This document shows positions 2,879-40,268 of a stretch of DNA of 64,000 bases, one piece after another. The notes beneath the pieces are model-generated. The model saw nothing but the letters and a program-made list of their open reading frames with translations, had not been told where the DNA came from and made no database searches. Source of the stretch: a virus. Location: IMG/VR virus record IMGVR_UViG_3300045996_002572, positions 10,298 through 74,297 of that record; one strand, written 5' to 3'. The translations under genes were made by a program, and so were the position numbers. Positions within the stretch are counted from its first letter, which is position 1. Every line of letters begins with the position of its first letter.

Positions 2879-5121
2879 GAGGAAGATTCCTCCGGCTCGA
2901 CCGCTAGCGCGATGGCGAGCATGCGGTCCTGCGGCGTCACCCAAACGTCGGTGTTGCTCATCAGCATGAAGCCGTGGCCGAGGTCGGCGGAGAGTAGCGT
3001 CCGCAGCATCACGCACCCCACGGCGCGCGCCGCCGCCGGCGGCACCGCGTTGCCGATGCGCTCCCGGTGGGCGGTGTCCCGGTCGCCGACGAGGCTCCAG
3101 GGCGTTCCGTCCGGCTGCCAGAGATCCTCCGTGGTGACGAGGGACTGCAGGGCAGCCAGTTCCAAGGTGGTGAAGGGCCGGTGCCAGGTGTCGTCGTCCG
3201 AGATGATGACCACCTCGCACCGCTCGTCCGCGCCGGGCAGGGCGACGAGGCCCGGCTCGAGGTCGGCGACGCCGGCGCGCGGGTCGGCAACGTTCCAGGC
3301 CCCGTTGTCGTGCCCGGCCGACGCTGTGACGGTGCCGCTCGCCGCCTCCCAGTCCCGGACGCCGTAGTGCCCGGCGCTGCTCCAGTCGCCGGCCGGGTCG
3401 AGCCCGACACGCGGATCCGCGACGGAGAAGGCTCCGTTCGAAGGCAGCGTCTGCCCGGCCACGGTCCCGCACGGCTCGTCCCACCGCCTCACGCCCGTGG
3501 CGCCAGCATAGCCGCCGGCGCCAGGCCGGGGGTCCGCTACGGCCTGCCCGCCGCTCGACGGCCCGGCGCCGGCCGTCACTGCCTGCGACGGTGCGTCCCA
3601 TCGGACCACCCGGAAGACGTTGCGGAAGCGGGCAACGTCGGACGTTCCGCGCGGGTCGGCCACCGCGTAGGCGCCATTCCCGGTTGCCGCCGCCCCGATC
3701 ACAGCGCCCGCCGGCTCCGGCCACCTGACGATCCTGTACTTGCCGCGACCGCCCCAGGTGGTGCCCACCCGCGGATCAGCGACGGATTGCCCGCCGCTCG
3801 CCGGGTGCTGGCTCTTGCCGATCACTGTGCCCGCCGGCTGGTCGTGCGCCACGAGGCGGAACTTGTTGCGGTGGGCGCCAGGTTTCCAGGCGAAGCGTGG
3901 GTCGGCGACGACGCCGGCGCCGCCGCCAACGGCCCGCGCCGCGGTGATCGTCCCCATGGGCCCCTCCCACTCCCGGACCTTGAAGACGTTGCTGTGCGCC
4001 CGCTCCACGCCGAGGTTGACGCGGGGGTCCGCCACCGAGTAGCGGCCGCCGCCCGGGAGCGACTGCGCCGTCACAGTGCCGGCCGGCTGCTCCCAGGCGC
4101 CGACGCCCAGCGAGCGGTAGTCGCCGAGCTCGCCCGTGCGAGGGTCGGCGACCGCGAAGCCGCCCTGGTGTGGCCGGCCGCCGCCGGTCACCACGCCCGC
4201 CGGGTCGGTCCAGGGCACCACCCCCATCGCACCGTTGTGCCAGCGGCCCACCGGCTCGATCGACACGTCGCGTAGGAAGCCGTCCTGGACGGCCAGGTCC
4301 TGGAGAGCGCGCCAGTCCTTGCCGGCCGGGATCAGCGCCAGCCGCACCCAGGTGAGCCACCGCAGCCGGCGGAGGGCGTGCATCGGGCCCGCAGAGGGAT
4401 CGCCCGGCAGCGGCAGCCGCTCGAGCACCTCGCCGACGCCGCGCAGCGGGTGAGTCTCAGGCTGGTAGAGGAACGGCGGCACCGTGGCACGATGCCGTGC
4501 GACCAGCAGCAGGCGGCGGCGGGTCTGCGCGAGCCCTCCGATTTCCCCGCAGTCGTGGGCGGTCTCCGCCACGGCGTAGCCCTCGGCGGCGAGCAGCGCC
4601 TTCACCTGGTCGAGGAAGCGCCGCCCGCGCTGGGCCATCATGGGGACGTTCTCGAAGACGACCAGCCGCGGCGGCTGCGCCTTGAACGCCTCCAGGGTGA
4701 GCCACATGCCGCGGATGGTGAGCCGGTTGAGGGCCTGGTAGCGGGGGGTGACGGACTTCGCCTTGGCGAGGAGGGCCGAGAACCCCTTGCAGGGTGCGGA
4801 CAGGAAGACGACGTCGGGGTAGCGGCCCTGCGCTGCGCGAAGGATGTCGGCCGGCTGGGCCTCTCGCCAGCCCTTCGGCGGCTCGTGCCCCCAGAAGTCC
4901 TGGTACTGCTCACGGTCGAAGAGGTCGAGCGTCGTCGCGTGCGTCCCGGTGGCGGCGTAGAAGTCGGCGCAGCCCTCCGGGTCGACGTCGACGCCGCCCA
5001 GGCAGACCAGCCGGCCCCGGACCCCGTCGACCATCTCCTCGGCCTGGTTCATCCCCTTCGCGCCGCCGCCGAGGCCGCAGAAGACGTGGAAGTGCGAGTA
5101 CTCCCTGACGGTCCCGATCAC
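2875..5121 (-). CDS. DNA cytosine-5 methyltransferase with internal VADPR repeats
   Basis: Motifs FCGLGGG (I), SAPCKGFS (IV), FENVP (VI), QTRRR (VIII), IGNAVPP (X); GTG start coupled to upstream stop. Confidence 0.92.
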   Translation of the reverse strand: MIGTVREYSHFHVFCGLGGGAKGMNQAEEMVDGVRGRLVCLGGVDVDPEGCADFYAATGTHATTLDLFDREQYQDFWGHEPPKGWREAQPADILRAAQGRYPDVVFLSAPCKGFSALLAKAKSVTPRYQALNRLTIRGMWLTLEAFKAQPPRLVVFENVPMMAQRGRRFLDQVKALLAAEGYAVAETAHDCGEIGGLAQTRRRLLLVARHRATVPPFLYQPETHPLRGVGEVLERLPLPGDPSAGPMHALRRLRWLTWVRLALIPAGKDWRALQDLAVQDGFLRDVSIEPVGRWHNGAMGVVPWTDPAGVVTGGGRPHQGGFAVADPRTGELGDYRSLGVGAWEQPAGTVTAQSLPGGGRYSVADPRVNLGVERAHSNVFKVREWEGPMGTITAARAVGGGAGVVADPRFAWKPGAHRNKFRLVAHDQPAGTVIGKSQHPASGGQSVADPRVGTTWGGRGKYRIVRWPEPAGAVIGAAATGNGAYAVADPRGTSDVARFRNVFRVVRWDAPSQAVTAGAGPSSGGQAVADPRPGAGGYAGATGVRRWDEPCGTVAGQTLPSNGAFSVADPRVGLDPAGDWSSAGHYGVRDWEAASGTVTASAGHDNGAWNVADPRAGVADLEPGLVALPGADERCEVVIISDDDTWHRPFTTLELAALQSLVTTEDLWQPDGTPWSLVGDRDTAHRERIGNAVPPAAARAVGCVMLRTLLSADLGHGFMLMSNTDVWVTPQDRMLAIALAVEPEESSS

Positions 5122-5324
5122 TTCGCCACTCCCGCCACTCGGATGCGGCGCACCACGGGGGGCTTCTGATTCCGCTCGGGAGCCACCTTGGCCTCGCAGT
5201 TGACGATCACGCGGCAGGACAGGCAGGTGGCGGGGCCGGCGACGATAGGGGCCCATGGATCGGCGAGCACCGAACGCAAGGTGAAGGGCACCAGGTCGGT
5301 ACAGTCGTGGCAGGTGACGCTCAC
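5118..5324 (-). CDS. Small CxxC protein
   Basis: CHDC and CLSC pairs; GTGA coupling at both ends. Confidence 0.5.
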   Translation of the reverse strand: MSVTCHDCTDLVPFTLRSVLADPWAPIVAGPATCLSCRVIVNCEAKVAPERNQKPPVVRRIRVAGVAK

Positions 5325-6388
5325 GCTGCGGGCTCCACCAAGTTGAGGTCCAGCGGCCGATGATTGGCCTTGAGGTAGAGCTGCAGCGAGGAGAGTCCCT
5401 CGTTGAGCAGGCTGAGGGGCGATGCAAGGAGGTCGTCCTCCGTCACCGCGCCGGCGAAGTGCTCGCCCAGCATCTGCGCCCGGAGCACCTTGGACCGGTT
5501 CGCGTTGGTGCCCAGGCCGTAGAAGCTCCAGAGCGTCTTGACGGTCTCGACGATCCGGTGACGCTCGCCGGACTCTGCCGTGTCCACGGCCTCGGGCCAG
5601 TACTCCACGGGCTCGTTGACGTTCTGCCATGCCGCGGCGTCCTCGTCGCCTGCTCGAATCAGGTCCTCGATCGAGTGCCGGAGGAGCTTGCGGAGCATCT
5701 GGAGCGCCGCGGACCGATCGTCCGCGCCCCGGAAGTCGGGGAGGATCCGCACCGCGCCCACTTCCTTGCCGCTCGCGTCCACGGTCACCACCATCGAACG
5801 TTCCCGGCTGGCGGAACGCACGCCGCGGACCTGGAGCCAGAAGCCCGGGGCAATGGGCCCCTCGTTCCGGCCGCGGGGCTTGTACCCTTCGGTTTCGACG
5901 GTCGCCCCTTGCCCGTCTTGCAACACCAGCGCGGCCTGGTTGTGGACCTCGATCACGTCCACTCCTGGGGTGAGCATTACGGTCCGGTATCGATCGTTGA
6001 TGGCGCCCCACGCGGAGGTCGGGACGCCGTGGAGGGGCGGGCGCCCAAGCCGGTTGAGCTCGGCGTTCGCATGATCGAGGTAGCTCCGCACCCCCAGCAG
6101 GTAGAGGTTCGGGGCAGAGTCAACGATCGCAACGCCACCCGCCGCCGAAGCCAGCGCTTGGGCGGTCCGGTTGAAGGTGCGGCAGCGGACGATCTGCTCG
6201 GCGCCGAAGCCGGCGGACTGGTAGACCGGGGCCGCGCCGAGCTCGTTGAGGATGGCGACCAGCGGCGCCCACTCGCGAGCCGCCCCCTTCTTCGCCCGAG
6301 GCGTCCTCACCTCGCGGATCAACGTGCCCAGCATCGCGGCGACCGTGGACTTTCCGGCGCCGGTGTGTCCTGAAACGGCGGCTCTCAT
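5321..6388 (-). CDS. AAA/P-loop ATPase, Sak4-like recombination protein
   Basis: N-terminal GHTGAGKST, IVDS Walker B, WGAIN motif; located in recombination module. Confidence 0.7.
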   Translation of the reverse strand: MRAAVSGHTGAGKSTVAAMLGTLIREVRTPRAKKGAAREWAPLVAILNELGAAPVYQSAGFGAEQIVRCRTFNRTAQALASAAGGVAIVDSAPNLYLLGVRSYLDHANAELNRLGRPPLHGVPTSAWGAINDRYRTVMLTPGVDVIEVHNQAALVLQDGQGATVETEGYKPRGRNEGPIAPGFWLQVRGVRSASRERSMVVTVDASGKEVGAVRILPDFRGADDRSAALQMLRKLLRHSIEDLIRAGDEDAAAWQNVNEPVEYWPEAVDTAESGERHRIVETVKTLWSFYGLGTNANRSKVLRAQMLGEHFAGAVTEDDLLASPLSLLNEGLSSLQLYLKANHRPLDLNLVEPAA

Positions 6389-6984
6389 GAAGGCACCTCG
6401 ATCCGGCTCATGAGCCGCCGCGCAAGCTCCGCGGTCGCCCTTACATCTGCCAGGGCGTCGTGAGCGTTATCTGCTGCGATGCCGGCCCATGAGCAAAGCG
6501 AGCCGAGCTTGTGATCCACGGGAGGTGCCGAAGTGCCCAGCGTCAGCCAGCGGGCGAGATTCAGCGTGCAAAGCGCCTCGAAGCAGGCCGCTGGCAGAAA
6601 CTCGCCCGCGCTCTTGAACCAGGCCGCGAGAAACTCCGCATCGAACCGAGAGTTGTGACCGCAGAGCCGGGCCACCCGATACGTCTTTCCGCCCCGCGAC
6701 GTCTTCTCCACGGTGGCATGCCGCCGCAGGAAGTCAGCGATTTTGCCGCGAGCAATGGGACCGGCGACGGCTTCTCGAGCCCAGACCGATGGGTCGTAGT
6801 GGTTCAGCGCGAGCGCCTCGGCGTCGGCGAGAGTTTCTTCGAAGGCCACTTTGACCTCGACCGCCTCAACCTCAGACCATTCCCCATCGCAGGCCACGGC
6901 GGCGAACTGGATTACTGGATGGCGGTAGGGGTCGAGCCCCCCCGTCTCCACATCGAAAACGACGACTCGATCTCCGGGATTCAT
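6385..6984 (-). CDS. DEDDh 3'-5' exonuclease (DnaQ-like)
   Basis: FDVETGG, GHNSRFD and HDALAD motifs. Confidence 0.92.
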   Translation of the reverse strand: MNPGDRVVVFDVETGGLDPYRHPVIQFAAVACDGEWSEVEAVEVKVAFEETLADAEALALNHYDPSVWAREAVAGPIARGKIADFLRRHATVEKTSRGGKTYRVARLCGHNSRFDAEFLAAWFKSAGEFLPAACFEALCTLNLARWLTLGTSAPPVDHKLGSLCSWAGIAADNAHDALADVRATAELARRLMSRIEVPS

Positions 6985-7514
6985 ATCGGTCCCTCCGGGG
7001 CGCACTTCGCGGTGCAGACCCTGGTCTTGGAATCGGTTTTGGGATCAACGAGGTCGACCATGTAGCGCTGCGAGTGCCAGGTGCCGCAGCTCTCGCATTG
7101 CTCGACTGGGAGAAAGCCCTGGGCGTAGGCGGCCTGGGCGAGCTCCGCGGCTTTCGCGGTCAGATCGACGCCGAACTGCTCCTCAAGCTCGCGGAAGCTG
7201 TGATACGGGCTGTCGCCCTTGACGTGGCAATGCCGGCAGAGCGGAACCTGATCGGCTGCCTTACCCAGGCGCCGTCGGGTCGTGACGTGGTGGATGTCGC
7301 ACGGCCCGCGCCACCGTCCGCAGAGGCAGCAACCGTGGTCGTTGTAGTAATCCTTGAGGGCGCCCTTGTACTCACACCCTTCGACCTCGGCCAGCTTCTG
7401 GGCCTCCCGTGCTCGATCCCGCTTTCGCGAGGCGAGCACCATGGCCCGCTTATTCCCCTTCAACTTGGGGACCGAGCGATTCCAGGGTCCGGGCTTGAGG
7501 GCGCTGCGCAGCAT
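6981..7514 (-). CDS. HNH-like zinc-binding nuclease
   Basis: CCLC...DIHHV...VPLCRHCH. Confidence 0.75.
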   Translation of the reverse strand: MLRSALKPGPWNRSVPKLKGNKRAMVLASRKRDRAREAQKLAEVEGCEYKGALKDYYNDHGCCLCGRWRGPCDIHHVTTRRRLGKAADQVPLCRHCHVKGDSPYHSFRELEEQFGVDLTAKAAELAQAAYAQGFLPVEQCESCGTWHSQRYMVDLVDPKTDSKTRVCTAKCAPEGPI

Positions 7515-7517
7515 GGC

Positions 7518-7718
7518 TCAGGCTCCGGCGAAGATGCGGGCAATCTGCTGGCGCTGCTCGGGCTTGCCGTCGGTCAGGGCGCAGAGCAGGGTGGTGAGCG
7601 TCTCGACGCGGGCGAGGTCGGCCTCCTCGGTTACCTCCTCCGCGGGTCGTGGGCGCCACGCGGCGCTCGACTCCAGGAGCCGGCGGGCATGGCGGCGGAG
7701 CACGTCGTCGCCTCTCAC
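7518..7718 (-). CDS. Hypothetical protein
   Basis: Coupled ORF in early operon. Confidence 0.5.
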   Translation of the reverse strand: MRGDDVLRRHARRLLESSAAWRPRPAEEVTEEADLARVETLTTLLCALTDGKPEQRQQIARIFAGA

Positions 7719-8044
7719 AGCGCACCGCCGGGGTTCTCGTCAGGGGCGTGGAAGAGGCCCATGACCGGGACCTCGATCTCGGCCAAGTCGACACCTTCGA
7801 CTGTCCGGAACGGCGAGGCAGGAAGAACGGCGTCCACCACCTCGGAGGCGTCGACGTCCGCAGCCTTCGGCATCACCAGGACCGGCACAGGGCGGCCAAG
7901 GATGGCGGCCTGCAGGCGGGCCAGCAGCTCGAGTCGGCGATTGTCCCCTTCTACCGAGCGGTCCTCTGCGTCCGGAGCACCGAGGAAGGCGAGGGCGGCA
8001 AGCGCCTCGCGGGCCTGGTAGGCGTGCAGGTGGCGGACGCTCAC
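7715..8044 (-). CDS. Hypothetical protein
   Basis: GTGA-coupled ORF preceded by GGAGG-like RBS. Confidence 0.55.
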   Translation of the reverse strand: MSVRHLHAYQAREALAALAFLGAPDAEDRSVEGDNRRLELLARLQAAILGRPVPVLVMPKAADVDASEVVDAVLPASPFRTVEGVDLAEIEVPVMGLFHAPDENPGGAL

Positions 8045-9230: not shown

Positions 9231-9306
9231 TGGAGGGCCCGGCCGGAGTTGAACCGGCGACATCCGACTTACAAGGACGGCGCTCTACCGTCTGAGCTAC
9301 AGGCCC
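9231..9306 (-). tRNA. tRNA with anticodon UGU (Thr-decoding), atypical acceptor stem, CCA encoded
   Basis: Full 76-nt cloverleaf: GGGCCTG TA GCTC AGACGGTA GAGC G CCGTC CTTGTAA GTCGG ATGTC GCCGG TTCAACT CCGGC CGGGCCC T CCA. Confidence 0.9.
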
Positions 9307-10163: not shown

Positions 10164-10384
10164 GGGCGGACCTCCCAGAGGCCAAGGCTCCCGATCTGCC
10201 GGATCTGTTTGTCGGTCAAGCCGCCGATGAAGGCGGTGTCATCCCTCTGGTTCCCGGCCCCACGACGAAGCGTCCAGCTCCAGGCCCCGGCGCTTGAGCG
10301 CTCGCGAACGAGGGTCACCGGTTGGCCGTAGATGTTTCGCCCGAGGTCGTATTCGACGCGGCTCGGCATCGGCGCGGTACTCAC
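10160..10384 (-). CDS. Hypothetical protein
   Basis: Coupled small ORF with GGAGG RBS and GTG start. Confidence 0.55.
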   Translation of the reverse strand: MSTAPMPSRVEYDLGRNIYGQPVTLVRERSSAGAWSWTLRRGAGNQRDDTAFIGGLTDKQIRQIGSLGLWEVRP

Positions 10385-11628: not shown

Positions 11629-11879
11629 TGCAAGCTCTCCAGCATCTCGGCATGGGCCTCGTCACTCGCAAGGCACCAGACGTTGCGCCGCAGGTTCACC
11701 CACCAGGCGATCTCCGCCTTGCGGTCGACCTCGGTGGGCCGGAGCAACTGCCCGTCCGTTGAGGCCGCCGCCTGCTCGATGATCCGGAGATCGGACTCGG
11801 TCAGCGCCGGCTCAGGGTTCGGACCCTGCAGGGGGGCGAGATCCTGCGGCCATACTCGGGAGAGGGTCGCGAGGATCAT
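11625..11879 (-). CDS. Hypothetical protein
   Basis: ATGA-coupled to cro. Confidence 0.55.
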   Translation of the reverse strand: MILATLSRVWPQDLAPLQGPNPEPALTESDLRIIEQAAASTDGQLLRPTEVDRKAEIAWWVNLRRNVWCLASDEAHAEMLESLQ

Positions 11880-12091
11880 GCGGACCTCCGGGCCCAGCTG
11901 CCGGCCGGCACCTTGGTCACGGCCTCAAGCCGGGCGGCGAGATCCAGCGAGGGCTTGTCGTGCCCGTTCAGAACGTTGCAGAGGTGTACCCGCGATACGC
12001 CCAGCTCGCGGGCGAGGCTGGTTTGGGAGCGCCGTACCTTCTTGAGAAAGGTCCGCACTCTCTCGGGAGCGTCGATCTCGTGAGGTGCCAT
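11876..12091 (-). CDS. Cro-like HTH regulator
   Basis: SQTSLARELGVSRVHLCNVLNGHDKPS; first gene of early operon, divergent from repressor. Confidence 0.85.
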   Translation of the reverse strand: MAPHEIDAPERVRTFLKKVRRSQTSLARELGVSRVHLCNVLNGHDKPSLDLAARLEAVTKVPAGSWARRSA

Positions 12092-12098
12092 TGGGCAT

Positions 12099-12183
12099 AA
12101 TGTAGGACTGATCCAACCTGTTGTCAAGCCCCAACTAGGCCTGATGCGGCCTCTTGTGTATGACCACTCCAACCTGTTAGGCT
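12099..12183. promoter_or_regulatory. Divergent cro/cI promoters with repeated operator
   Basis: Minus strand TTGACA(12127-12122)-17 nt-TACATT; plus strand extended -10 TGnTAGGCT (12175-12183); TCCAACCTGTT at 12112-12122 and 12168-12178. Confidence 0.75.
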
Positions 12184-12191
12184 TCCCGGCC

Positions 12192-12608
12192 ATGCCTCCT
12201 CTGGAGACACTTGGCCCGGCGTTGCGCGCGCTTAGGGAAGCCGCTGGCCTTTCGCAGGACCAGGTCGCGGCGGCTATGGGTGCGGGCCAAAGGCAGGTCA
12301 GCAGGTACGAGGCCGGCGACGCCGACCCGCGCACCCGCACTTTGCTGCGGTTCCTTGATGCCGTGGGCTCAGATCTCGCGGAGCTTCAACGCGCCATGGA
12401 GGGACAATCCATACAGCCTCGCGGCGGAGGTCATGGTCAGGCAGGTAGCGGGGGCGGACAGGAGATAGACGGCTCGACCGCGGCCCGCAGCCTTCAGGCC
12501 TTGGCGGAGGCGTTGGCGCGTCCCCCGGTCACGGAGGAGCGGCTGAGGGAGATCGTGAAGGAAGAAGTGGCGCGCCAGCTACCGCCGAGCGCCAGCGCGT
12601 CGAAGTGA
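12192..12608 (+). CDS. CI-like XRE repressor lacking an S24 autocleavage domain
   Basis: LRALREAAGLSQDQVA...QVSRYEAGDADP HTH, then Gly-rich linker and short helices. Confidence 0.85.
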   Translation: MPPLETLGPALRALREAAGLSQDQVAAAMGAGQRQVSRYEAGDADPRTRTLLRFLDAVGSDLAELQRAMEGQSIQPRGGGHGQAGSGGGQEIDGSTAARSLQALAEALARPPVTEERLREIVKEEVARQLPPSASASK

Positions 12609-13703
12609 CGCCCCGGCCCTCAGGAGACAGTCGGCGGCGCGGTATTCGAACTGGGCAGCGGCCGCCCTCCGGAGAAGGCGAGCCGCTATTGCTTCGGACG
12701 GGATTGCCGCCCCCTCGAAGGCCGACTCGACCAGCGCCGCGGAGTGCTCCGCCTCGCTCGATCGGCCGAGCACCACTAAGAGATGCGACAGTTCGAGGCC
12801 TACGAACGCAGCCTCGTACCAGACGCGGGCCGCAAGGTAGCCGTCTAGCGCGCCGCGCAGCTTCAGTTCCGCCAGGGCGGAGCAGCCCAGCTCTCGTGCC
12901 ACCCGGCCGTGAATCCACAGACGCCGCAGAGCGAGCAGATGATCGCCCACCTCTTTGTAGAGCGACTCGGCGCCGTCCAGGGCGACCAAGGCATCGGCAG
13001 GCCTCTTGCCGTCGAGTAGATACTCGGCCAGATTGTGCGCCGCCGCTAGCATCAGGCGCGGATCCCGGTGTCGATCGATTAGCGGCATGGCCTCGGTCAA
13101 AGAGTCGACCGCATCGCGATGGTTCCCCAGCTCGTTTTCGGCCACGGACCGGCGCACCAAGGAGAACGCGAGCGCGTGTGGGTTATCCTGCGACCGCCGC
13201 ACGGCCACGACGCCGTTGAGCAGTCGGAGCGCCGAGCGCAACCGACGCTGCCGGAGATAGATCGCCGCGCGCTCTTCTCGGAGGTTTGCTGCGACCACCG
13301 GAGAGCCGGTGCCGCTGAGCGCGAAGCGCATAGCCGCGTCGATAGCGGAGTGAGCGGCCGAGAAGTCGCCAGCCACCCTCAGGCCGGCACCGAACGCTCG
13401 ATGGGCATCGGCCGCCAGATCCGAGATTTCGGGGCGCTGATCAAGGCGGGACAGGGCATCGGCGGACGCTGCTGCAGTACGAGCAAGCTGCAGCATCCGA
13501 GCGGGCTCCACGAACCGCGCAGCGAAGCTTTCGGCGATCAGGGAGGAGATCACCTCTGGCCGCTGGCAGCGAGTAGAGCTAGCGAGAGCCAGACTTGTCC
13601 CCCGTGGGACGCGGCGAACGGCGAACTGCATGATGGCGCGGAGTCTATCACGAAGCGGTGAAAAGCGGCGAGGCTCCGCCTGGTGAAAATGGCGGAGCCC
13701 CAT
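12579..13703 (-). CDS. TPR-like all-helical repeat protein with no evident HTH (start may be ATG 13633)
   Basis: Repeated A/G/L helical pairs: AHRAFGAGLRVAGDFSAA, AAAHNLAEYLLDGKRPADAL, LWIHGRVARELG, YEAAFVGLELSHLL. Confidence 0.8.
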   Translation of the reverse strand: MGLRHFHQAEPRRFSPLRDRLRAIMQFAVRRVPRGTSLALASSTRCQRPEVISSLIAESFAARFVEPARMLQLARTAAASADALSRLDQRPEISDLAADAHRAFGAGLRVAGDFSAAHSAIDAAMRFALSGTGSPVVAANLREERAAIYLRQRRLRSALRLLNGVVAVRRSQDNPHALAFSLVRRSVAENELGNHRDAVDSLTEAMPLIDRHRDPRLMLAAAHNLAEYLLDGKRPADALVALDGAESLYKEVGDHLLALRRLWIHGRVARELGCSALAELKLRGALDGYLAARVWYEAAFVGLELSHLLVVLGRSSEAEHSAALVESAFEGAAIPSEAIAARLLRRAAAAQFEYRAADCLLRAGASLRRAGARR

Positions 13704-13712
13704 CGTGTCGGC

Positions 13713-14075
13713 TTAGGGCTGCTTGGGGCAGAGAATGCCGCCCGGATCGATCGCGCAGCCGGTGTCCCCGCCGCCGCTCTGCGTGGTCGAGCCTCCGCCC
13801 GCACCCGAGGTGCCGCCGCTGCCGTCTGCCGGCGGCGTGGTCTCTGCCCCGGTGACGTAGGTCCAGAAACTGGAGAGAGCATCAGAGAGCAGGTTCCAGA
13901 TGGAATCAGCAGCCACACTTGTGTCCGCGGCGAGCAGCGGTGAACCGATCCCCGCCAGCGCGACACAGATGACCAGGGCGCCGGCAAGTGATCGGCGCGA
14001 GCGCGCTCCAGACGGGTCGACACCAGATCCACAGGGCTTGAGCTTCGGCATCCGGGTCGTGCTAGACTTTTTCAT
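13713..14075 (-). CDS. Small secreted pro-peptide with C-terminal GCAIDPGG motif
   Basis: GGGAGGGAG RBS; basic n-region and hydrophobic h-region ending LLA-A; Gly/Ser/Thr linker; C-terminal GDTGCAIDPGGILC. Confidence 0.75.
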   Translation of the reverse strand: MKKSSTTRMPKLKPCGSGVDPSGARSRRSLAGALVICVALAGIGSPLLAADTSVAADSIWNLLSDALSSFWTYVTGAETTPPADGSGGTSGAGGGSTTQSGGGDTGCAIDPGGILCPKQP

Positions 14076-14206
14076 CAGAGTCTCCCTCCCCCGCAGACGC
14101 ACACCTCCCCTGCCATAGGGGACCGGCTCGCGGGGGTCATGCAGTCGATTGTACGGTGCTCAACCGCGTCCGCGACGTGACAACATTATTTTCCGGAGAC
14201 ATCGCA

Positions 14207-14740
14207 ATGTTGCAATTCCGCCATGTTGTCGTGTCAGGAGCACTCCTGCTATGTGCGATGGGGTGCGGAGATGGCGAGGAGGTGGATGTCTCGCCCCTGC
14301 CGCAGCTCCAGCAGGTGAAGGCCGCGCAGGCGAAGGCAGCCGCTCCCGCGGTGCTTCCCGGGGTGCGTCTCGCCGAGGTCCGGCGGCTGCTCACAGACAG
14401 TTACACCGCCTGCTTGAAAGCAGTCGAGGCCACGGACGTTTGCTGGGACATCCTCGGCGCGAAGCTCGTCTTCGAGCACTGCATGAAGGATCGCGACCAG
14501 GTGCGGGCCGACCACGATCTGGCAGCGAGCGAAGCCGCGACGCTGATCCGGGATTTCTCCGGGGCCGCCCGCGATCCTCTCGTTCGGCTCGCCGCACTCG
14601 AGAGCCGGATGTGCCGCCTTGCCACGGATCCAGAGGGCGAAACGCTCGTCTCCTATCGGCAGAAGCGGACAGGATTGGAAGACGAGCGCAGGGGGTTAGA
14701 GGCCGAGCTGGACATCCTGGGATCGGGGGTGGCGCCGTGA
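14207..14740 (+). CDS. Putative lipoprotein
   Basis: Signal peptide ending LLLCAMG-C; helical body. Confidence 0.65.
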   Translation: MLQFRHVVVSGALLLCAMGCGDGEEVDVSPLPQLQQVKAAQAKAAAPAVLPGVRLAEVRRLLTDSYTACLKAVEATDVCWDILGAKLVFEHCMKDRDQVRADHDLAASEAATLIRDFSGAARDPLVRLAALESRMCRLATDPEGETLVSYRQKRTGLEDERRGLEAELDILGSGVAP

Positions 14741-15375
14741 CGAGGTGGTTTGTCGTGCTGTTGCTCCTGCTGCCGTCGGCGGCCCAGGGTGGCTGGATTG
14801 TGCTCCGCAACGGAACCTCCATCGAAACGAAGGGTGTCTGGGTGGCCTCAAAGACCCACGTCGCCTACTACGACCCCAAGACCGGCAAGGCGAACGTCGT
14901 CCCCGTAGGCTTCGTAGATCTTGAAAAGAGCCGGGCAGCGACCAAGGCGGGCTCTCCTCCCCCAGCGCCCGCTCGAGAGAAGGTCGTCATCACAGATGCA
15001 GACGTAGGAAACTACCCGGCCGCGGTCGCGGCGGCGCTCGCTCGCTTCAATGATGCCGTGGCCGCCGACAACATCGCCGCAGCTCTGGCGGCGCTAGACG
15101 AGATGGTGAAGGCCGGCGGAGCGAGCCTTAGGCTCAACATGGTCGCGGAGCGCTGCGCTATCTCGTATGCGAATCCTCAAGCGCAAGCTCTTTGCCGAGT
15201 CGGCCGCCCGGTTCCTACCTACATGGCTGGCGAATACGATCCTGCAGCTCAGGCTAAAGCGGACCTCCTAGGCGTCAGAGAGGCCTATTTGAGCTGCTAT
15301 GAATCGTCGAGCGTACCGATGGAGCGTAGGAAGTGTATCGAGCGGGTGCGACGGGAATCAGGAGGCGCACCGTGA
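14737..15375 (+). CDS. Secreted hypothetical protein
   Basis: GTGA-coupled; signal peptide VVLLLLLPSAAQG; small beta domain WIVLRNGTSIETKG...VDLEKS; paired cysteines. Confidence 0.65.
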   Translation: MTRWFVVLLLLLPSAAQGGWIVLRNGTSIETKGVWVASKTHVAYYDPKTGKANVVPVGFVDLEKSRAATKAGSPPPAPAREKVVITDADVGNYPAAVAAALARFNDAVAADNIAAALAALDEMVKAGGASLRLNMVAERCAISYANPQAQALCRVGRPVPTYMAGEYDPAAQAKADLLGVREAYLSCYESSSVPMERRKCIERVRRESGGAP

Positions 15376-15378
15376 CTC

Positions 15379-17484
15379 TCAGCCGCCGTACGGCGCCACC
15401 AGCCACGTCGGTACGGCTGCGTACCGGTCGGGGAACGCATTGACCGTGGCCTTGTGCATCGCCGCGTAGTACTCGTCCGCTCGCGGCAGGCCCCAGCTCA
15501 CCGCCGCAGCGAGGGCCGCCTGAGCGATGGCCTGGTAATGCTGCGGGTCGCGCGGGTTGAAGACCCCCGGGTCCGGCGGCCGGACGAAGCGGACGAGCGT
15601 TTCCCAATCCCGGATCCGCCCGCCGACCTTGAGCTCCCCGGGAAGGTCGTAGGGAGTGCAGTTCGGCTCCAAGACCCCGAAGGTGGCGCACCGGCCGAGC
15701 AGGTTGCCGACGATCCACGTGCCCACCTGCCGGACGAGCTCCGCCGGCAGTGCCCCCATGCGCTCGATCCACGGCAGCGTGGCGGCGTACATGTCCTCCT
15801 GCCAGCTCCGGTAGAAGGAGGCGAGAGCAGTAATACCGGCCTTGGTGTACCGGTCCATGGTGTCGGTATTGCGCCCGATGATCCCGAGCGGCGAGGTGGG
15901 CGCCTCGACCTCCATGTACCAGCGGAAGCTCCGCTCCAGCACTGCCGAGAAGAACTTCTTCGCCGGCTCCTCCCAGTGGGGCGCAAAGGCTGCCGTGACG
16001 GCGATCGTCCTGACGACCCATGCCTCGGCTCGGGTGGTGCCATGGGCAGGGCCGATCAGTCCGAGAGACTCCTTGCGGTACTTCCAATTCCGGGCGTAGA
16101 GGTTGAAGTGGGAGAGCATCACGAGCCCGGTGTGGTATTGCTGGAATCCGGTCAGGAGCCAGGGGCCGAGGCCGAGCGCCGGCTGGTGCTCACTGTCCAG
16201 CCTGTAGACATCGGAGTAGGCCACGGGGGGGAGGCGGTCTGCGGCCGGCACGTTGTCGCCCGGGTTTGAGAGCGTCGCCCGTGGGTGCTGCTCGATCGAG
16301 TAGGGGTCGTCGGTCACTGGGTCGCGCAAGGCGGCGCCGAACAGGCCCAGCGCCTCGCCAGCCTTGAGGGACACCGGGAAGAGCCGCGGGTCGCCGGTCA
16401 GCAGGAGCAGCACATCCCAGCCGGGCAGCGGCCCGATATCTTTTCGGCCGCCCGGCGTCCCCATCGCGGGAAGCACCAGGCCATGGGGCTTGGCATTGCT
16501 CTCGGCCACGAGGTCAAGAATGGTCTTCTCGGAGACCGGCGCCGGCAGGGCGGCATAGTTCGGGATGGCGCCGGCCGCCTTCCACCGGGCGAGGTCTGGC
16601 GCCACGAAGCCCAGCTTGTCGGGATGGCTGTGGAAGATCCGCCGCTCTCGGTAGGGCAGCGACACGGCACCGCCGCCGGCGACCGTGCCCCCGATCGTCA
16701 GCTCCCAGGTGCAGGCGACGGTTCCCGGCAGAACGTCCAGCGTGGCCAGGCTGTTGTCGATCGACACGCACCAGGTGGAGGAGCCGTCCGGGTAGTGGCG
16801 CAAGGTCACCTCGCCACACAGCTTGCCGGCTTGCCAGGTGAAGTCCCGCAGGCAGATGTCGGGGCCGTGAACGAGCCGCCGGAGTTGCCCCTGAACCTCT
16901 CGCCCGTCGATTCGGAAGAACGTTCCGACCGGCATCGTCGCGGATCGCGGATCGGGGACCGCCAGCGCTTCGATGGTGAGGTGTCCTTGAGCTGCCTCGG
17001 CAGAGAGCAGGGCGTGGCGCACGCTCCCGTCCGGCCAGTAGGAATAGGCGATCAGGGTCGCGGGGGCCTCCCCGGCGAAGAGGCGGTCGACCTCGCGGAC
17101 CTCCCCCTGCCGGAAGAAGTGCCCGAAGCTAACGTAGGTCGCCGAGCCCGGGTGCATCGTAACCTCGCCGACAACGCGCCTCTCCGGCTCCGGATTACCC
17201 CCGCCACGCTGGCACTCCCCGATCTGTGCCTCCAGCTCTGCCACCCGGGCGAGGGCCGCACCGAGGCGCTCCTCTGCCGCAGCAAGCAGCGCCTGCTTTT
17301 CGGCCACCGCGGCCTCGAGCCACGTCTCCCGCTCAACGGCTTCCGCAAGATCGGCCGCCAATCGGACCCGCTCTCCTTCCACCCGTCGCACCTCATCTTG
17401 TGCAGCGGCAAGGGATCCGAGGTCGGCTTGCCACTGCACAGCAGCAGCTTCCACGGAGGAGGCGAGGAGGTCCGGCGTGGTCAT
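15379..17484 (-). CDS. Coiled-coil plus beta-barrel and alpha/alpha toroid protein, distantly PcRGLX/YetA-like
   Basis: N-terminal heptads; WPDGSVRHALLS, GGRKDIGPLPGW and DSEHQP...WLLTG motifs. Confidence 0.6.
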   Translation of the reverse strand: MTTPDLLASSVEAAAVQWQADLGSLAAAQDEVRRVEGERVRLAADLAEAVERETWLEAAVAEKQALLAAAEERLGAALARVAELEAQIGECQRGGGNPEPERRVVGEVTMHPGSATYVSFGHFFRQGEVREVDRLFAGEAPATLIAYSYWPDGSVRHALLSAEAAQGHLTIEALAVPDPRSATMPVGTFFRIDGREVQGQLRRLVHGPDICLRDFTWQAGKLCGEVTLRHYPDGSSTWCVSIDNSLATLDVLPGTVACTWELTIGGTVAGGGAVSLPYRERRIFHSHPDKLGFVAPDLARWKAAGAIPNYAALPAPVSEKTILDLVAESNAKPHGLVLPAMGTPGGRKDIGPLPGWDVLLLLTGDPRLFPVSLKAGEALGLFGAALRDPVTDDPYSIEQHPRATLSNPGDNVPAADRLPPVAYSDVYRLDSEHQPALGLGPWLLTGFQQYHTGLVMLSHFNLYARNWKYRKESLGLIGPAHGTTRAEAWVVRTIAVTAAFAPHWEEPAKKFFSAVLERSFRWYMEVEAPTSPLGIIGRNTDTMDRYTKAGITALASFYRSWQEDMYAATLPWIERMGALPAELVRQVGTWIVGNLLGRCATFGVLEPNCTPYDLPGELKVGGRIRDWETLVRFVRPPDPGVFNPRDPQHYQAIAQAALAAAVSWGLPRADEYYAAMHKATVNAFPDRYAAVPTWLVAPYGG

Positions 17485-18322
17485 AGGCGATGCACCTCTA
17501 CGGCTGTGCGTTGTGGGGCAGGATGTCGCGCGCCTCCCAGGATAGCGCGGCATTTTGACCAAGGCAAGGCAAAATGTCGCAGTCCGGTGGTACGATTGTG
17601 CCGTGCCTACTGGAGGGACAAGGAATGTTTGAGGCTCGTATCGGATGGTATAGCCCCGGTCGCGCGGGCGGATGGCGCCGGTGGATCGCCGACTACTATT
17701 CGCTCTCGCTCATCGTAGGCTGGGGCAACTCCGGCGCCGTCGAGCCCGACTGGGCCTGAATGCTCCGCGCTGGCGTAATCAGCTCCGCGAGCGAGCCCGC
17801 AAGGAGGTCGAGAAGCGCACCGCCCCTGGCCGCGCCGCCCCCGCTGCATGGTGTTGGAGCGGCGGCTGCGACACCGGAGGAGCTGGAAGCGTGGTGCGTC
17901 GGGAGTCTCGCCTTCTCCCGGGCCGATTCTGGACGTTGGACCTGGTGCTCCGACGCCGGACCGCCGGCGTCGGCATCCTTTGGGAGCTGCTCCCTTATCC
18001 CGAAGACCCCGAGCTCCAGGCTGATCGCCTCCGCGTCTTCCTCGGCCCCATCGCCGTCACTCCCTGGGGAGAGGTCGAGGGGCTTGGAGCTGAACGTCGG
18101 GTTCGGTGGCTCGGTGAGGTGGTGAGGTGCAGGCCCTCGTATTTGACCCCCGCATGGCCGATTCGAGAATCCACCTGATCGACCTCTCCACGTTGACGCT
18201 CGGCGCGGCCACCACCGAGCAGGCCGGCTGGAACGAGGCCATCTCTCACCTCCCGGCTGAATACTTCTGCTGGCTCGTCGACTGGAGCGAGCTGGGCAAG
18301 AGCGAGGGGCTCAGGTAGATAG

Positions 18323-23775: not shown

Positions 23776-24054
23776 TCGACGCTCCTCACGTAGCTGACGC
23801 AAGTATACCACCTGTCGTTACTGACGGAAGTTGCGTCTCGTGCCCGCCACTATATGTGGTGTCCCATTAGAGGTGATGGTTCTCCACCTTCACCCGGCGT
23901 ACGCGCGAGTTGCCGTCACGTCGTGGAGCGAAAGGCTCTCGCGGTCGAGCAGTGCTCGCCATGCAGTGACAGGTAGTGATCCATCCGGCGCCTCCCCGGC
24001 GTCGTCCTCGGGCCAGTGGCCCACCGACCGGTCAGTGACCGCGGAGATTCCCCG

Positions 24055-24849
24055 ATGAAGCCGAAGGTGTTGAAGGTGGCCCTCGATGGCCAAGAGGTCG
24101 AGGTGTGCCCGGTCCGCAACGGCTGGCCCGTCTGCGTGGATCCGGATGGCAACGAGCGCGAATTCAACACCGAGGACGCCTTTACCAAGCTGAAGAAGCA
24201 CCCCGAGGAGCGCACAACCCTTCAGAAGCGAGCCGAGACCGCGGAGCAGGCCCTCGCCGGCCTGGCTGCGCTCGGTGACGTCGACACGATCAAGGCAGCG
24301 CTCGAAACCCAGAAGAACCTCAAGGCCGGCCAATTGATGGCGGCAGGGGAAGCCCAGAAGGTCCGTGACGACGCGGTCCGTGAGGCGACCGAGCGCATCA
24401 GGACGATGGAGGCGGACCTCTCGGCGGCGCGATCGGAAACCGACCGCCTGGCGATCAGCCACGCCTTCCACGCATCCAAGCACTTCGCCAAGGACGACAA
24501 GGGCAACACCAAGATCCGGCTGAAGCCGTCGGCCGTCCAGGCACTCTTCGGTCACCTTTTCCGCCGCGAGGCGGACGGCACAGTTGCGGCCTACAACGGC
24601 GACAGCCGCGTGATGTCCCACCAGAACATCGGCGACCCTGCCGACTTCGATGAAGCCCTTCAGATCCTGATCGATAAATCCGAACACCGAGACGACGTCT
24701 GGGCAGGTGTGGCTGCCAACGGCAGCGGTGCAACCGGCGGTGGTCGTGGCGGCGGCGACGGCAAGAGCATCCCGCGCAAGCAGTTCGAATCCATGAGCAC
24801 GGCTGAGAGAAACAAGTTCCTCGCCAACGGCGGGGTTCCCACGGACTAG
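24055..24849 (+). CDS. Capsid scaffolding protein (DUF6651-like)
   Basis: Coiled coil; ALFGHLF, GDPADFDEALQILI, GSGATGG; directly before capsid gene. Confidence 0.8.
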   Translation: MKPKVLKVALDGQEVEVCPVRNGWPVCVDPDGNEREFNTEDAFTKLKKHPEERTTLQKRAETAEQALAGLAALGDVDTIKAALETQKNLKAGQLMAAGEAQKVRDDAVREATERIRTMEADLSAARSETDRLAISHAFHASKHFAKDDKGNTKIRLKPSAVQALFGHLFRREADGTVAAYNGDSRVMSHQNIGDPADFDEALQILIDKSEHRDDVWAGVAANGSGATGGGRGGGDGKSIPRKQFESMSTAERNKFLANGGVPTD

Positions 24850-40195: not shown

Positions 40196-40268
40196 CGCAG
40201 GGTGGCGCAGTCGTTAGCGCGCGGGGTTCATACCCCAGAGGTCGCAGGTTCAAGTCCTGCCCCTGCAA
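40196..40268 (+). tRNA. Initiator-type tRNA-fMet (CAU), no encoded CCA, possibly degenerate
   Basis: C1-A72 mismatch, GGG/CCC anticodon stem, TTCATAC loop, GCAGG TTCAAGT CCTGC T-arm. Confidence 0.8.

Follow-up and report, generated by a model that had tools for sequence, protein, structure and literature searches.

Communication by an exported peptide and a tetratricopeptide repeat (TPR) receptor, including the phage arbitrium system and the Rap-Phr pairs, has been described for Bacillota (PMC10075063). The RRNPP receptors (Rap/NprR/PlcR/Rgg/PrgX/AimR) are recognized by a five-point signature, which includes a propeptide of 10-100 amino acids (aa), a Sec signal and an adjacent TPR receptor of 250-500 aa (PMC10075063). 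Here we describe a locus of similar layout in a 64,000-nucleotide (nt) stretch of DNA from a soil phage, positions 10,298 to 74,297 of the IMG/VR record IMGVR_UViG_3300045996_002572. Hereafter, this whole stretch is called the window, and positions are counted from its first base. From the sequence alone, positions 12192-14075 had been noted as a candidate lysis-lysogeny system of a secreted pro-peptide, a TPR receptor and a repressor (the original prediction). The best explanation of the locus as a whole, to which we assign a probability of about 0.5, is that the phage carries a copy of a peptide/receptor cassette of Acidobacteriota which has not been described before and which would here feed the lysis-lysogeny decision.

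A conserved pair of peptide and receptor genes

The pair consists of a gene for a predicted exported pro-peptide of 120 aa (13713-14075, minus strand) and a gene for a putative cytoplasmic TPR receptor of 374 aa (12579-13703, minus strand), the ATG of which lies 9 nt past the stop codon of the peptide gene. The original prediction had reported a 120-aa gene with a signal peptide, a Gly/Ser/Thr linker and a C-terminal motif, lying upstream of a TPR gene of about 350 aa on the same strand. The small gene is present as it had been described, and the TPR gene has the position and strand then given to it and a greater length.

The cassette of the host lineages was defined from 78 loci of Thermoanaerobaculia and Holophagales, which were fetched with the TPR protein alone. 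Beside most TPR copies in these loci there is an upstream open reading frame (ORF) on the same strand, encoding about 100 aa with a signal peptide, an amphipathic helix containing Trp (sWLdAALsWL), a variable linker and a C-terminal loop. The median length of these host precursors is 102 aa (range 66-158), and they end in a G-S-C-I-D-P-x-G-x(0-7)-C loop, in a Cys-less ...IDPNG end, or in two to four G-x-[ILM]-D-P-x-G repeats. Tandem core copies (2-4) of the last kind were observed in the precursors at 3168-3545 of locus L048, 3133-3546 of L063, 852-1178 of L079 and 3179-3547 of L076; a fourfold GSGMDPDG is an example, four copies occur in L048 and L063, and the arrangement resembles multi-copy pheromone precursors.

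When the 3289 small ORFs of the 78 loci were screened with a regular expression that ignored position, 94 had both a hydrophobic N-terminus and a C-terminal [ILVMG]D[PG]xG, and 91 of them lay upstream of a TPR match on the same strand. A census of the same loci using a hidden Markov model (HMM) placed 105 of 106 peptide matches upstream of a same-strand TPR homologue, which strongly supports the conserved linkage that the original prediction had supposed between small DPxG ORFs with a signal peptide and TPR genes; XRE repressors, which it had named along with them, are not conserved neighbours in the host cassettes. Counted from the receptor, a peptide gene is present for 96 of the 134 TPR genes having full upstream sequence, and most of those lacking one stand behind a sigma gene or come second among the receptors of a peptide-TPR-TPR array.

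The profile of the peptide family was built solely from the 91 host peptides, and the window peptide was left out of it. Searched against the 1098 six-frame segments of the window, it found the pro-peptide ORF as the sole significant match (E = 1.1e-7, next best 0.3), with an alignment spanning the signal peptide, the Trp helix, the linker and the motif. Such a profile was needed to find the host peptides, because tblastn with the window peptide gave no match in the host loci at 1e-3; the window XRE protein gave none either. Judged by these sequence comparisons, the arrangement of peptide and TPR gene is not a chance one, and the two phage genes are almost certainly a cognate pair of the Acidobacteriota cassette family.

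The receptor family of Acidobacteriota

Homologues of the receptor were collected by a full HMMER search of 1.84 billion representative sequences, which gave 2846 representatives at E<=1e-3 and 1212 at E<=1e-10. A typical relative is 440-460 aa long and combines an N-terminal part of about 100 residues with a TPR domain of about 320 aa. The best 80 TPR loci in GTDB species genomes all come from Acidobacteriota (Thermoanaerobaculia or Holophagales), and a genome often contributes several of them. In four genomes of this kind, 32, 57, 60 and 77 copies were counted at E<=1e-10. The expansion of the family in Thermoanaerobaculia, which the original prediction had suggested, is borne out by these 32-77 copies per genome.

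In the N-terminal head of the host receptors, H5, H33, C38 and C41 are invariant. The best PDB match of the head profile is ChrR, the zinc anti-sigma factor (ZAS) of Cereibacter (PDB 2q1z, 2z2s; E = 0.004), with the zinc ligands aligned. A few members of the family reach the Pfam model zf-HC2, and 98 of 154 representative homologues carry the zinc motif. The host receptors show no obvious transmembrane segment, their median best 19-residue hydropathy being 1.36. One subtype has a gene for a sigma factor of the extracytoplasmic function (ECF) type (175-183 aa, with Sigma70_r2 and r4) directly upstream, the stop of which overlaps the receptor start by 8 nt, and ahead of this sigma gene stands a peptide gene whose product ends in ...RIDPDGNH. 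Taken together, the host system looks like a soluble anti-sigma factor that senses through a TPR superhelix and is paired with an exported peptide. A conserved block in the order sigma, ZAS-TPR, sigma, peptide (...RIDPDGNH), sigma, ZAS-TPR was seen in loci L039, L041, L046, L049, L056 and L061, at about 3000-8000 in each.

The phage receptor as a headless member of the family

The phage receptor is 30-37% identical to host copies and at most 37% identical to any other protein, with phmmer E values down to 2e-55. Homologues align from about residue 11 of the phage protein, which corresponds to host residue 80-110, directly past the head and a disordered linker. Because this homology reaches upstream of the start chosen by the gene caller (GTG 13553, 324 aa), that start was rejected and the ATG giving 374 aa is favoured. 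The motif H-x3-5-C-x2-C and the anti-sigma head are absent from the phage protein, and the peptide stop, 9 nt before the ATG, leaves no room for a head upstream. By its alignment, the phage receptor is a clean headless form, truncated at the domain boundary, which descends from the ChrR-type zinc anti-sigma/TPR family and has lost the head; without it, the protein cannot be an anti-sigma factor of the ZAS type. Headless homologues occur among its nearest relatives as well (P0008, P0156, P0015 and P0012).

The residues N106, R109, N224 and W263, nearly invariant in the family alignment, are kept. The only Pfam match is TPR_12 (E = 3e-6), and no helix-turn-helix (HTH) was found in the TPR protein by Pfam, NCBIfam or PHROGs, as the original prediction had stated. 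The likeness of the XRE repressor to the HTH heads of rare HTH-TPR members of the family was considered as well and dropped, since no specific likeness was seen.

The AlphaFold2 (AF2) model of the receptor is an all-helical superhelix with a predicted local distance difference test (pLDDT) score of 91 and a predicted template modelling (pTM) score of 0.88. Its best Foldseek match is LGN/Pins (PDB 3sf4, 6hc2; E = 6e-8), followed closely by peptide-bound RapJ-PhrC (template modelling [TM] score 0.67/0.70) and by the Rap of phi3T and RapF-PhrF (TM 0.64-0.65). When the sequence profile was compared with the PDB, RapF was reached at E = 1.7e-9, and consensus TPR proteins, Pins and kinesin light chain scored far better.

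The pro-peptide and its C-terminal loop

The ATG of the pro-peptide gene is preceded by a good Shine-Dalgarno sequence, GGAGGGAG. By inspection, hydropathy and alignment with host signal peptides, its product begins with a putative secretion signal (13932-14075, minus strand), composed of a long basic n-region with SRRSL, a hydrophobic segment of roughly 20 residues and an Ala-rich cleavage region, LLA|AD, at which the segment ends; a basic, a hydrophobic and an Ala-rich part recur throughout the family. A reading as a lipoprotein was rejected because there is no lipobox. The predicted exported part carries the Trp-containing amphipathic helix, DSIWNLLSDALSSFWTYVT (13851-13907, minus strand), which corresponds to the family consensus, and a Gly/Ser/Thr linker between this helix and the C-terminus. 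The C-terminus reads ...GDTGCAIDPGGILCPKQP, so the C-terminal motif quoted in the original prediction is present and is not the very end, four more residues following it. This part of the protein includes a Cys-bracketed loop, GCAIDPGGILC (13728-13760, minus strand), which family conservation and the co-folding described below mark as the predicted receptor-binding signal. In the alignment, D110 and G113 are invariant across the family and G106 and P111 nearly so. For this family of DPxG peptides, Pfam and NCBIfam hold no model, and PADLOC, PHROGs and NCBIfam returned nothing for either the peptide or the TPR protein.

Two further features of the n-region were observed. A second, weaker motif copy, CGSGVDPSG (14007-14033, minus strand; HMM domain 1, conditional E = 6e-4), lies in its cytoplasmic part, within an insertion of about 20 residues that host peptides do not have. 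As the bare motif is common, with 15 copies in the six frames of the window, the chance of such a copy is about 0.02. The same insertion holds SRRSL (13986-14000, minus strand), which stands just before the hydrophobic segment and resembles a twin-arginine (Tat) motif; host members have short n-regions of the Sec type.

Predicted binding of the loop in the receptor groove

The receptor was co-folded with precursor residues 49-120, each supplied with its own alignment. Three runs gave interface (ipSAE) scores of 0.71, 0.71 and 0.73, against 0.01 for the best of 3 controls, and agreed in at least 35% of contacts; the mark applied to this score is reached by 58 of 80 solved complexes and by 2 of 110 mismatched pairs. 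The confident interface of the peptide comprises residues 106-116 exactly, that is GCAIDPGGILC, and nothing else. On the receptor it comprises the inner face of successive repeats. Of the five polar or aromatic residues that hardly vary in the family, it includes four, N106, R109, N224 and W263. The co-fold suggested in the original prediction thus places the DPxG loop in the groove, and we consider it likely, from the model, that the loop binds there.

The adjoining cI/cro switch

The pair adjoins a divergent cI/cro switch. A gene for a cI-like XRE repressor of 138 aa (12192-12608, plus strand, with an alternative ATG at 12144; HTH_31, E = 1e-13; PHROG repressors) encodes an HTH, a Gly-rich linker and a C-terminal helical tail, and no S24 domain. 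Its 3′ end and that of the TPR gene converge with an overlap of 30 nt (12579-12608), which bears out what had been claimed of this junction, including the lack of S24. No terminator was found in the overlap, and its fold z-score of +1.9 indicates no special RNA structure. On the other side, a small cro-like HTH gene of 71 aa (11876-12091, minus strand; Pfam HTH_3, E = 1e-6; PHROG transcriptional regulators) is the first gene of a leftward early operon.

The 100-bp region between the two (12092-12191) contains two to three direct repeats of 22 nt (12101-12122, 12134-12155 and 12157-12178), namely TGTAGGACTGATCCAACCTGTT and two variants at 82% and 68%. They overlap a sigma-70-like promoter facing cro (12127 to 12099, TTGACA-17-TACATT), which the promoter scan scored at 10/12 matches against 0.2 expected. 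The repeats are probably operators. No S24 peptidase and no M78 (ImmA-type) peptidase turned up in the whole 74-kb record, which offers no explanation of how the cI-like repressor would be removed.

The phage record and its other genes

The source record is a linear IMG/VR virus of 74.3 kb, with a CheckV completeness of 91% and a guanine-plus-cytosine (GC) content of 68%. Its structural and packaging genes encode an Sf6-like small terminase (TerS), a portal, a Mu-F-like protein, a scaffold-like protein and a P22-like coat; a GH19-like lysin and, as a weak match, a tyrosine recombinase are also encoded. No gene with sigma-70 region 2 or 4 was found in the whole record. A search of 301 genomes of the class Thermoanaerobaculia with the portal gave no match at 1e-10, and neither a prophage relative nor a host was identified. 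Our best guess, drawn from the distribution of the TPR family and the GC content only, is a host in the Thermoanaerobaculia/Holophagales group of Acidobacteriota.

Relatives of the cassette were also sought among viral contigs. Searches of IMG/VR with the TPR protein, the peptide, the A3 alignment and the headless homologues P0156 and P0015 gave no relative, and metagenome scans found nothing. The DNA pattern for G-x-C-I-D-P-x-G occurs in 110 IMG/VR stretches, none of which has a peptide-family and a TPR match together, and these were set aside as chance matches.

Divergent from the peptide gene is an ORF of lipoprotein-like appearance (...LLLCAMGC...), which starts at 14156, or alternatively at 14207, and ends at 14740 on the plus strand. 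It is followed by an exported-looking ORF from GTG 14737 to 15375 on the same strand, with the signal-peptide-like start VTRWFVVLLLLLPSAAQGG. Neither of these genes (14156-15375, plus strand) has a family match, and both look like accessory or moron genes.

Other observations concern more distant parts of the window. Between the switch block and the terminase there is a 727-aa ORF (15379-17562, minus strand) with an N-terminal coiled-coil-like stretch and a sub-threshold match to a PcRGLX-like N-terminal domain (E = 5e-4). The early region carries a tRNA-Thr(UGU) gene at 9231-9306 on the minus strand (Rfam 66 bits), and the tRNA was the sole match of the Rfam scan; ARAGORN called a tRNA-Met(CAU) at 40196-40268 on the plus strand. 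The scaffold-like protein (DUF6651; 24016-24849, plus strand) contains C-V-D-P-D-G, the core of the peptide motif, probably by chance.

Discussion

In the reading we prefer, the pro-peptide would be exported by means of its signal peptide, and its C-terminal, disulfide-bracketed I-D-P-x-G loop would be the ligand. The mature peptide would re-enter the cytoplasm, where the cognate TPR protein would take up the loop in the groove on the concave side of its superhelix. Binding of the peptide in the host would presumably free or hold a sigma factor by way of the ChrR-type head. As there is no DNA- or sigma-binding head in the phage receptor, it would have to act by protein contact on another partner, like Rap, and would be released or switched by its peptide. 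The repressor, which the original prediction had named as the possible partner, is a candidate. The most likely use would be an input of density or infection history, reported by the peptide, to the lysis-lysogeny decision, like that of arbitrium or RapI-PhrI, because the pair adjoins cI and cro genes, the repressor has no self-cleavage domain and an ImmA-type protease is lacking. The components of this scheme differ in strength. Extracellular signalling with re-import we hold to be slightly short of an even chance. An output on the phage switch is doubtful, and only tentatively would we propose that the pair is an arbitrium-like communication system which arose independently of the Bacillota RRNPP receptors.

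Several points weigh against this scheme. Across dozens of paralogues the I-D-P-x-G core hardly varies, unlike the signals of most pheromone systems, and specificity would therefore have to lie in the x residue and the 0-7 residues before the second Cys. For a diderm host we know of no import route, and no search for one was made here. With its 120 aa and a conserved Trp helix, the precursor may yield an exported protein that does something in its own right. The peptide-TPR operon runs against cI, among accessory-looking genes for exported proteins, a position that would suit a lysogenic-conversion gene equally. The receptor has no recognizable output domain. Its branch is also very long (1.48, the median being 0.14), which makes its placement in the tree unreliable and, together with the identity of at most 37%, indicates that the cassette is not a recent pick-up. 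In the co-fold, the pLDDT of the peptide partner was low (41-44), and the pass may partly be recall, since structures of Rap-Phr and LGN-peptide complexes have been solved. A second IMG/VR contig with this TPR protein or a CIDPxG peptide was not found, and the host phylum is deduced solely from the family distribution and GC content.

The same evidence has been read in three other ways. The pair may serve interference with host signals, or lysogenic conversion, in which the peptide of the prophage acts on the ZAS-TPR receptors of the host and the headless receptor sequesters host peptides or forms pairs with receptors of the host, so that the ECF sigma regulons of the lysogen, and not the phage switch, are rewired. 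The 32-77 paralogous receptors per host genome, some coupled to ECF sigma genes, would offer targets, and the phage copy lacks exactly the sigma-binding head while keeping the groove invariants. Its operon is not co-transcribed with cI, and the neighbours at 14207-14740 and 14737-15375 look like exported accessory proteins. A sponge alone, however, would not need its own peptide gene; moreover, the identity of the pair to any host copy is at most 37%, nothing points to cross-talk with one particular receptor of the host, and no host was identified for the phage. We regard this explanation as rather unlikely. The very long branch, the missing head and the lack of close relatives in public data might alternatively mark a decaying passenger, a cassette that was picked up from the host and is no longer functional, with the head loss as a sign of the remnant. 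This seems very improbable to us, because both ORFs are intact and tightly spaced, the peptide gene has a good Shine-Dalgarno sequence, all family-invariant groove residues and the invariant peptide residues are kept, the fold is confident (AF2 pLDDT 91) and the truncation falls cleanly at a domain boundary.

The third alternative dispenses with intercellular signalling. Here the TPR protein would bind the precursor ahead of its export and would serve as a chaperone, or as a regulator coupled to secretion, like the type III class II TPR chaperones, or the small protein would be an exported effector or bacteriocin-like product with the TPR protein as its regulator or immunity factor. Such a role would suit the size of the precursor, which exceeds that of typical pheromone precursors, its conserved Trp helix, the nearly invariant core motif, the second motif copy on the cytoplasmic side of the hydrophobic segment and the fact that no importer was identified, none having been looked for. 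It fits poorly with the quick export of Sec-type precursors, with the Cys bracket, which points to an oxidising compartment, with the repeated cores (4 copies in L048 and L063), which resemble multi-copy pheromone precursors, and with the head of the host receptor, which is a regulatory anti-sigma domain. Its probability is low in our estimate.

If the pair signals, it would represent genetically encoded peptide communication in a diderm soil phylum and its phages, with a new receptor lineage in which an anti-sigma head is joined to a TPR sensor. It would also be a compact, testable case, with one peptide, one 374-aa receptor and one switch, of a phage re-using a host signalling cassette. The headless receptor is a natural split of sensor from output, and is useful for finding how the TPR domain responds to peptide binding. 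The DPxG-peptide/ZAS-TPR cassette of Acidobacteriota appears to be undescribed: no paper, Pfam entry or NCBIfam entry was found for the family, nor was a paper found linking RRNPP with Acidobacteria, and the passages searched of the ECF reclassification paper describe no such TPR anti-sigma factors.

Comparison with known systems

The host relatives resemble the ChrR-type ZAS proteins in having a head with H, H, C and C joined to a C-terminal sensor and, in some cases, in translational coupling to ECF sigma genes. They differ in that the sensor is a 320-aa TPR superhelix and not a cupin, and the phage protein has no head. The TPR domain of LGN/Pins is a superhelix as well and, as proposed here for the phage receptor, encloses an extended peptide in an inner groove lined with Asn residues; LGN/Pins is a eukaryotic polarity protein, and the likeness is one of fold and binding mode only.

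Compared with the RRNPP signature (PMC10075063), the phage receptor lies within the described limits of size, TPR content and adjacency (374 aa, TPR_12, 9-nt spacing), whereas the propeptide, at 120 aa, is longer than the 10-100 aa given there. In RRNPP systems the mature peptide is re-imported through Opp and bound in the cytoplasm; for the phage pair, the co-fold supports the binding part of this. The original prediction called the module analogous to the RRNPP systems, and this is apt for the layout and the likeness of fold. Common descent with the RRNPP receptors is not demonstrable, because consensus TPRs far outscore RapF (E = 1.7e-9) and LGN precedes Rap in Foldseek; also, RRNPP hosts are Bacillota, whereas the host here is inferred to be a diderm of the Acidobacteriota.

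The Rap-Phr systems, as in phi3T and in RapI-PhrI/ImmR of ICEBs1, come closest to the proposed way of working and share with the phage locus a pro-peptide gene adjoining the gene for a TPR receptor of about 370 aa without a DNA-binding domain, an action by protein contact (proposed here, as for Rap), a temperate element and a non-self-cleaving XRE repressor alongside. In contrast to them, the peptide gene here is upstream and not downstream of the receptor gene, the precursor is longer and has a Cys-bracketed DPxG loop, and, unlike RapI-PhrI/ImmR, the record has no ImmA-type protease. Arbitrium (AimR-AimP-AimX of SPbeta-like Bacillus phages) is likewise a phage peptide and TPR receptor at a lysis-lysogeny control region, and its signal comes from the C-terminal part of a Sec-exported precursor, as is proposed here. 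However, AimR carries an HTH at its N-terminus and contacts DNA upstream of aimX, whereas the phage TPR protein has no HTH; the gene order is reversed, the sequences are unrelated and no aimX-like target was identified. By these differences in sequence and organization, the phage module is not arbitrium. It appears instead to be of the same general kind, peptide/TPR communication on a temperate element, with an unrelated receptor lineage and in a new phylum.

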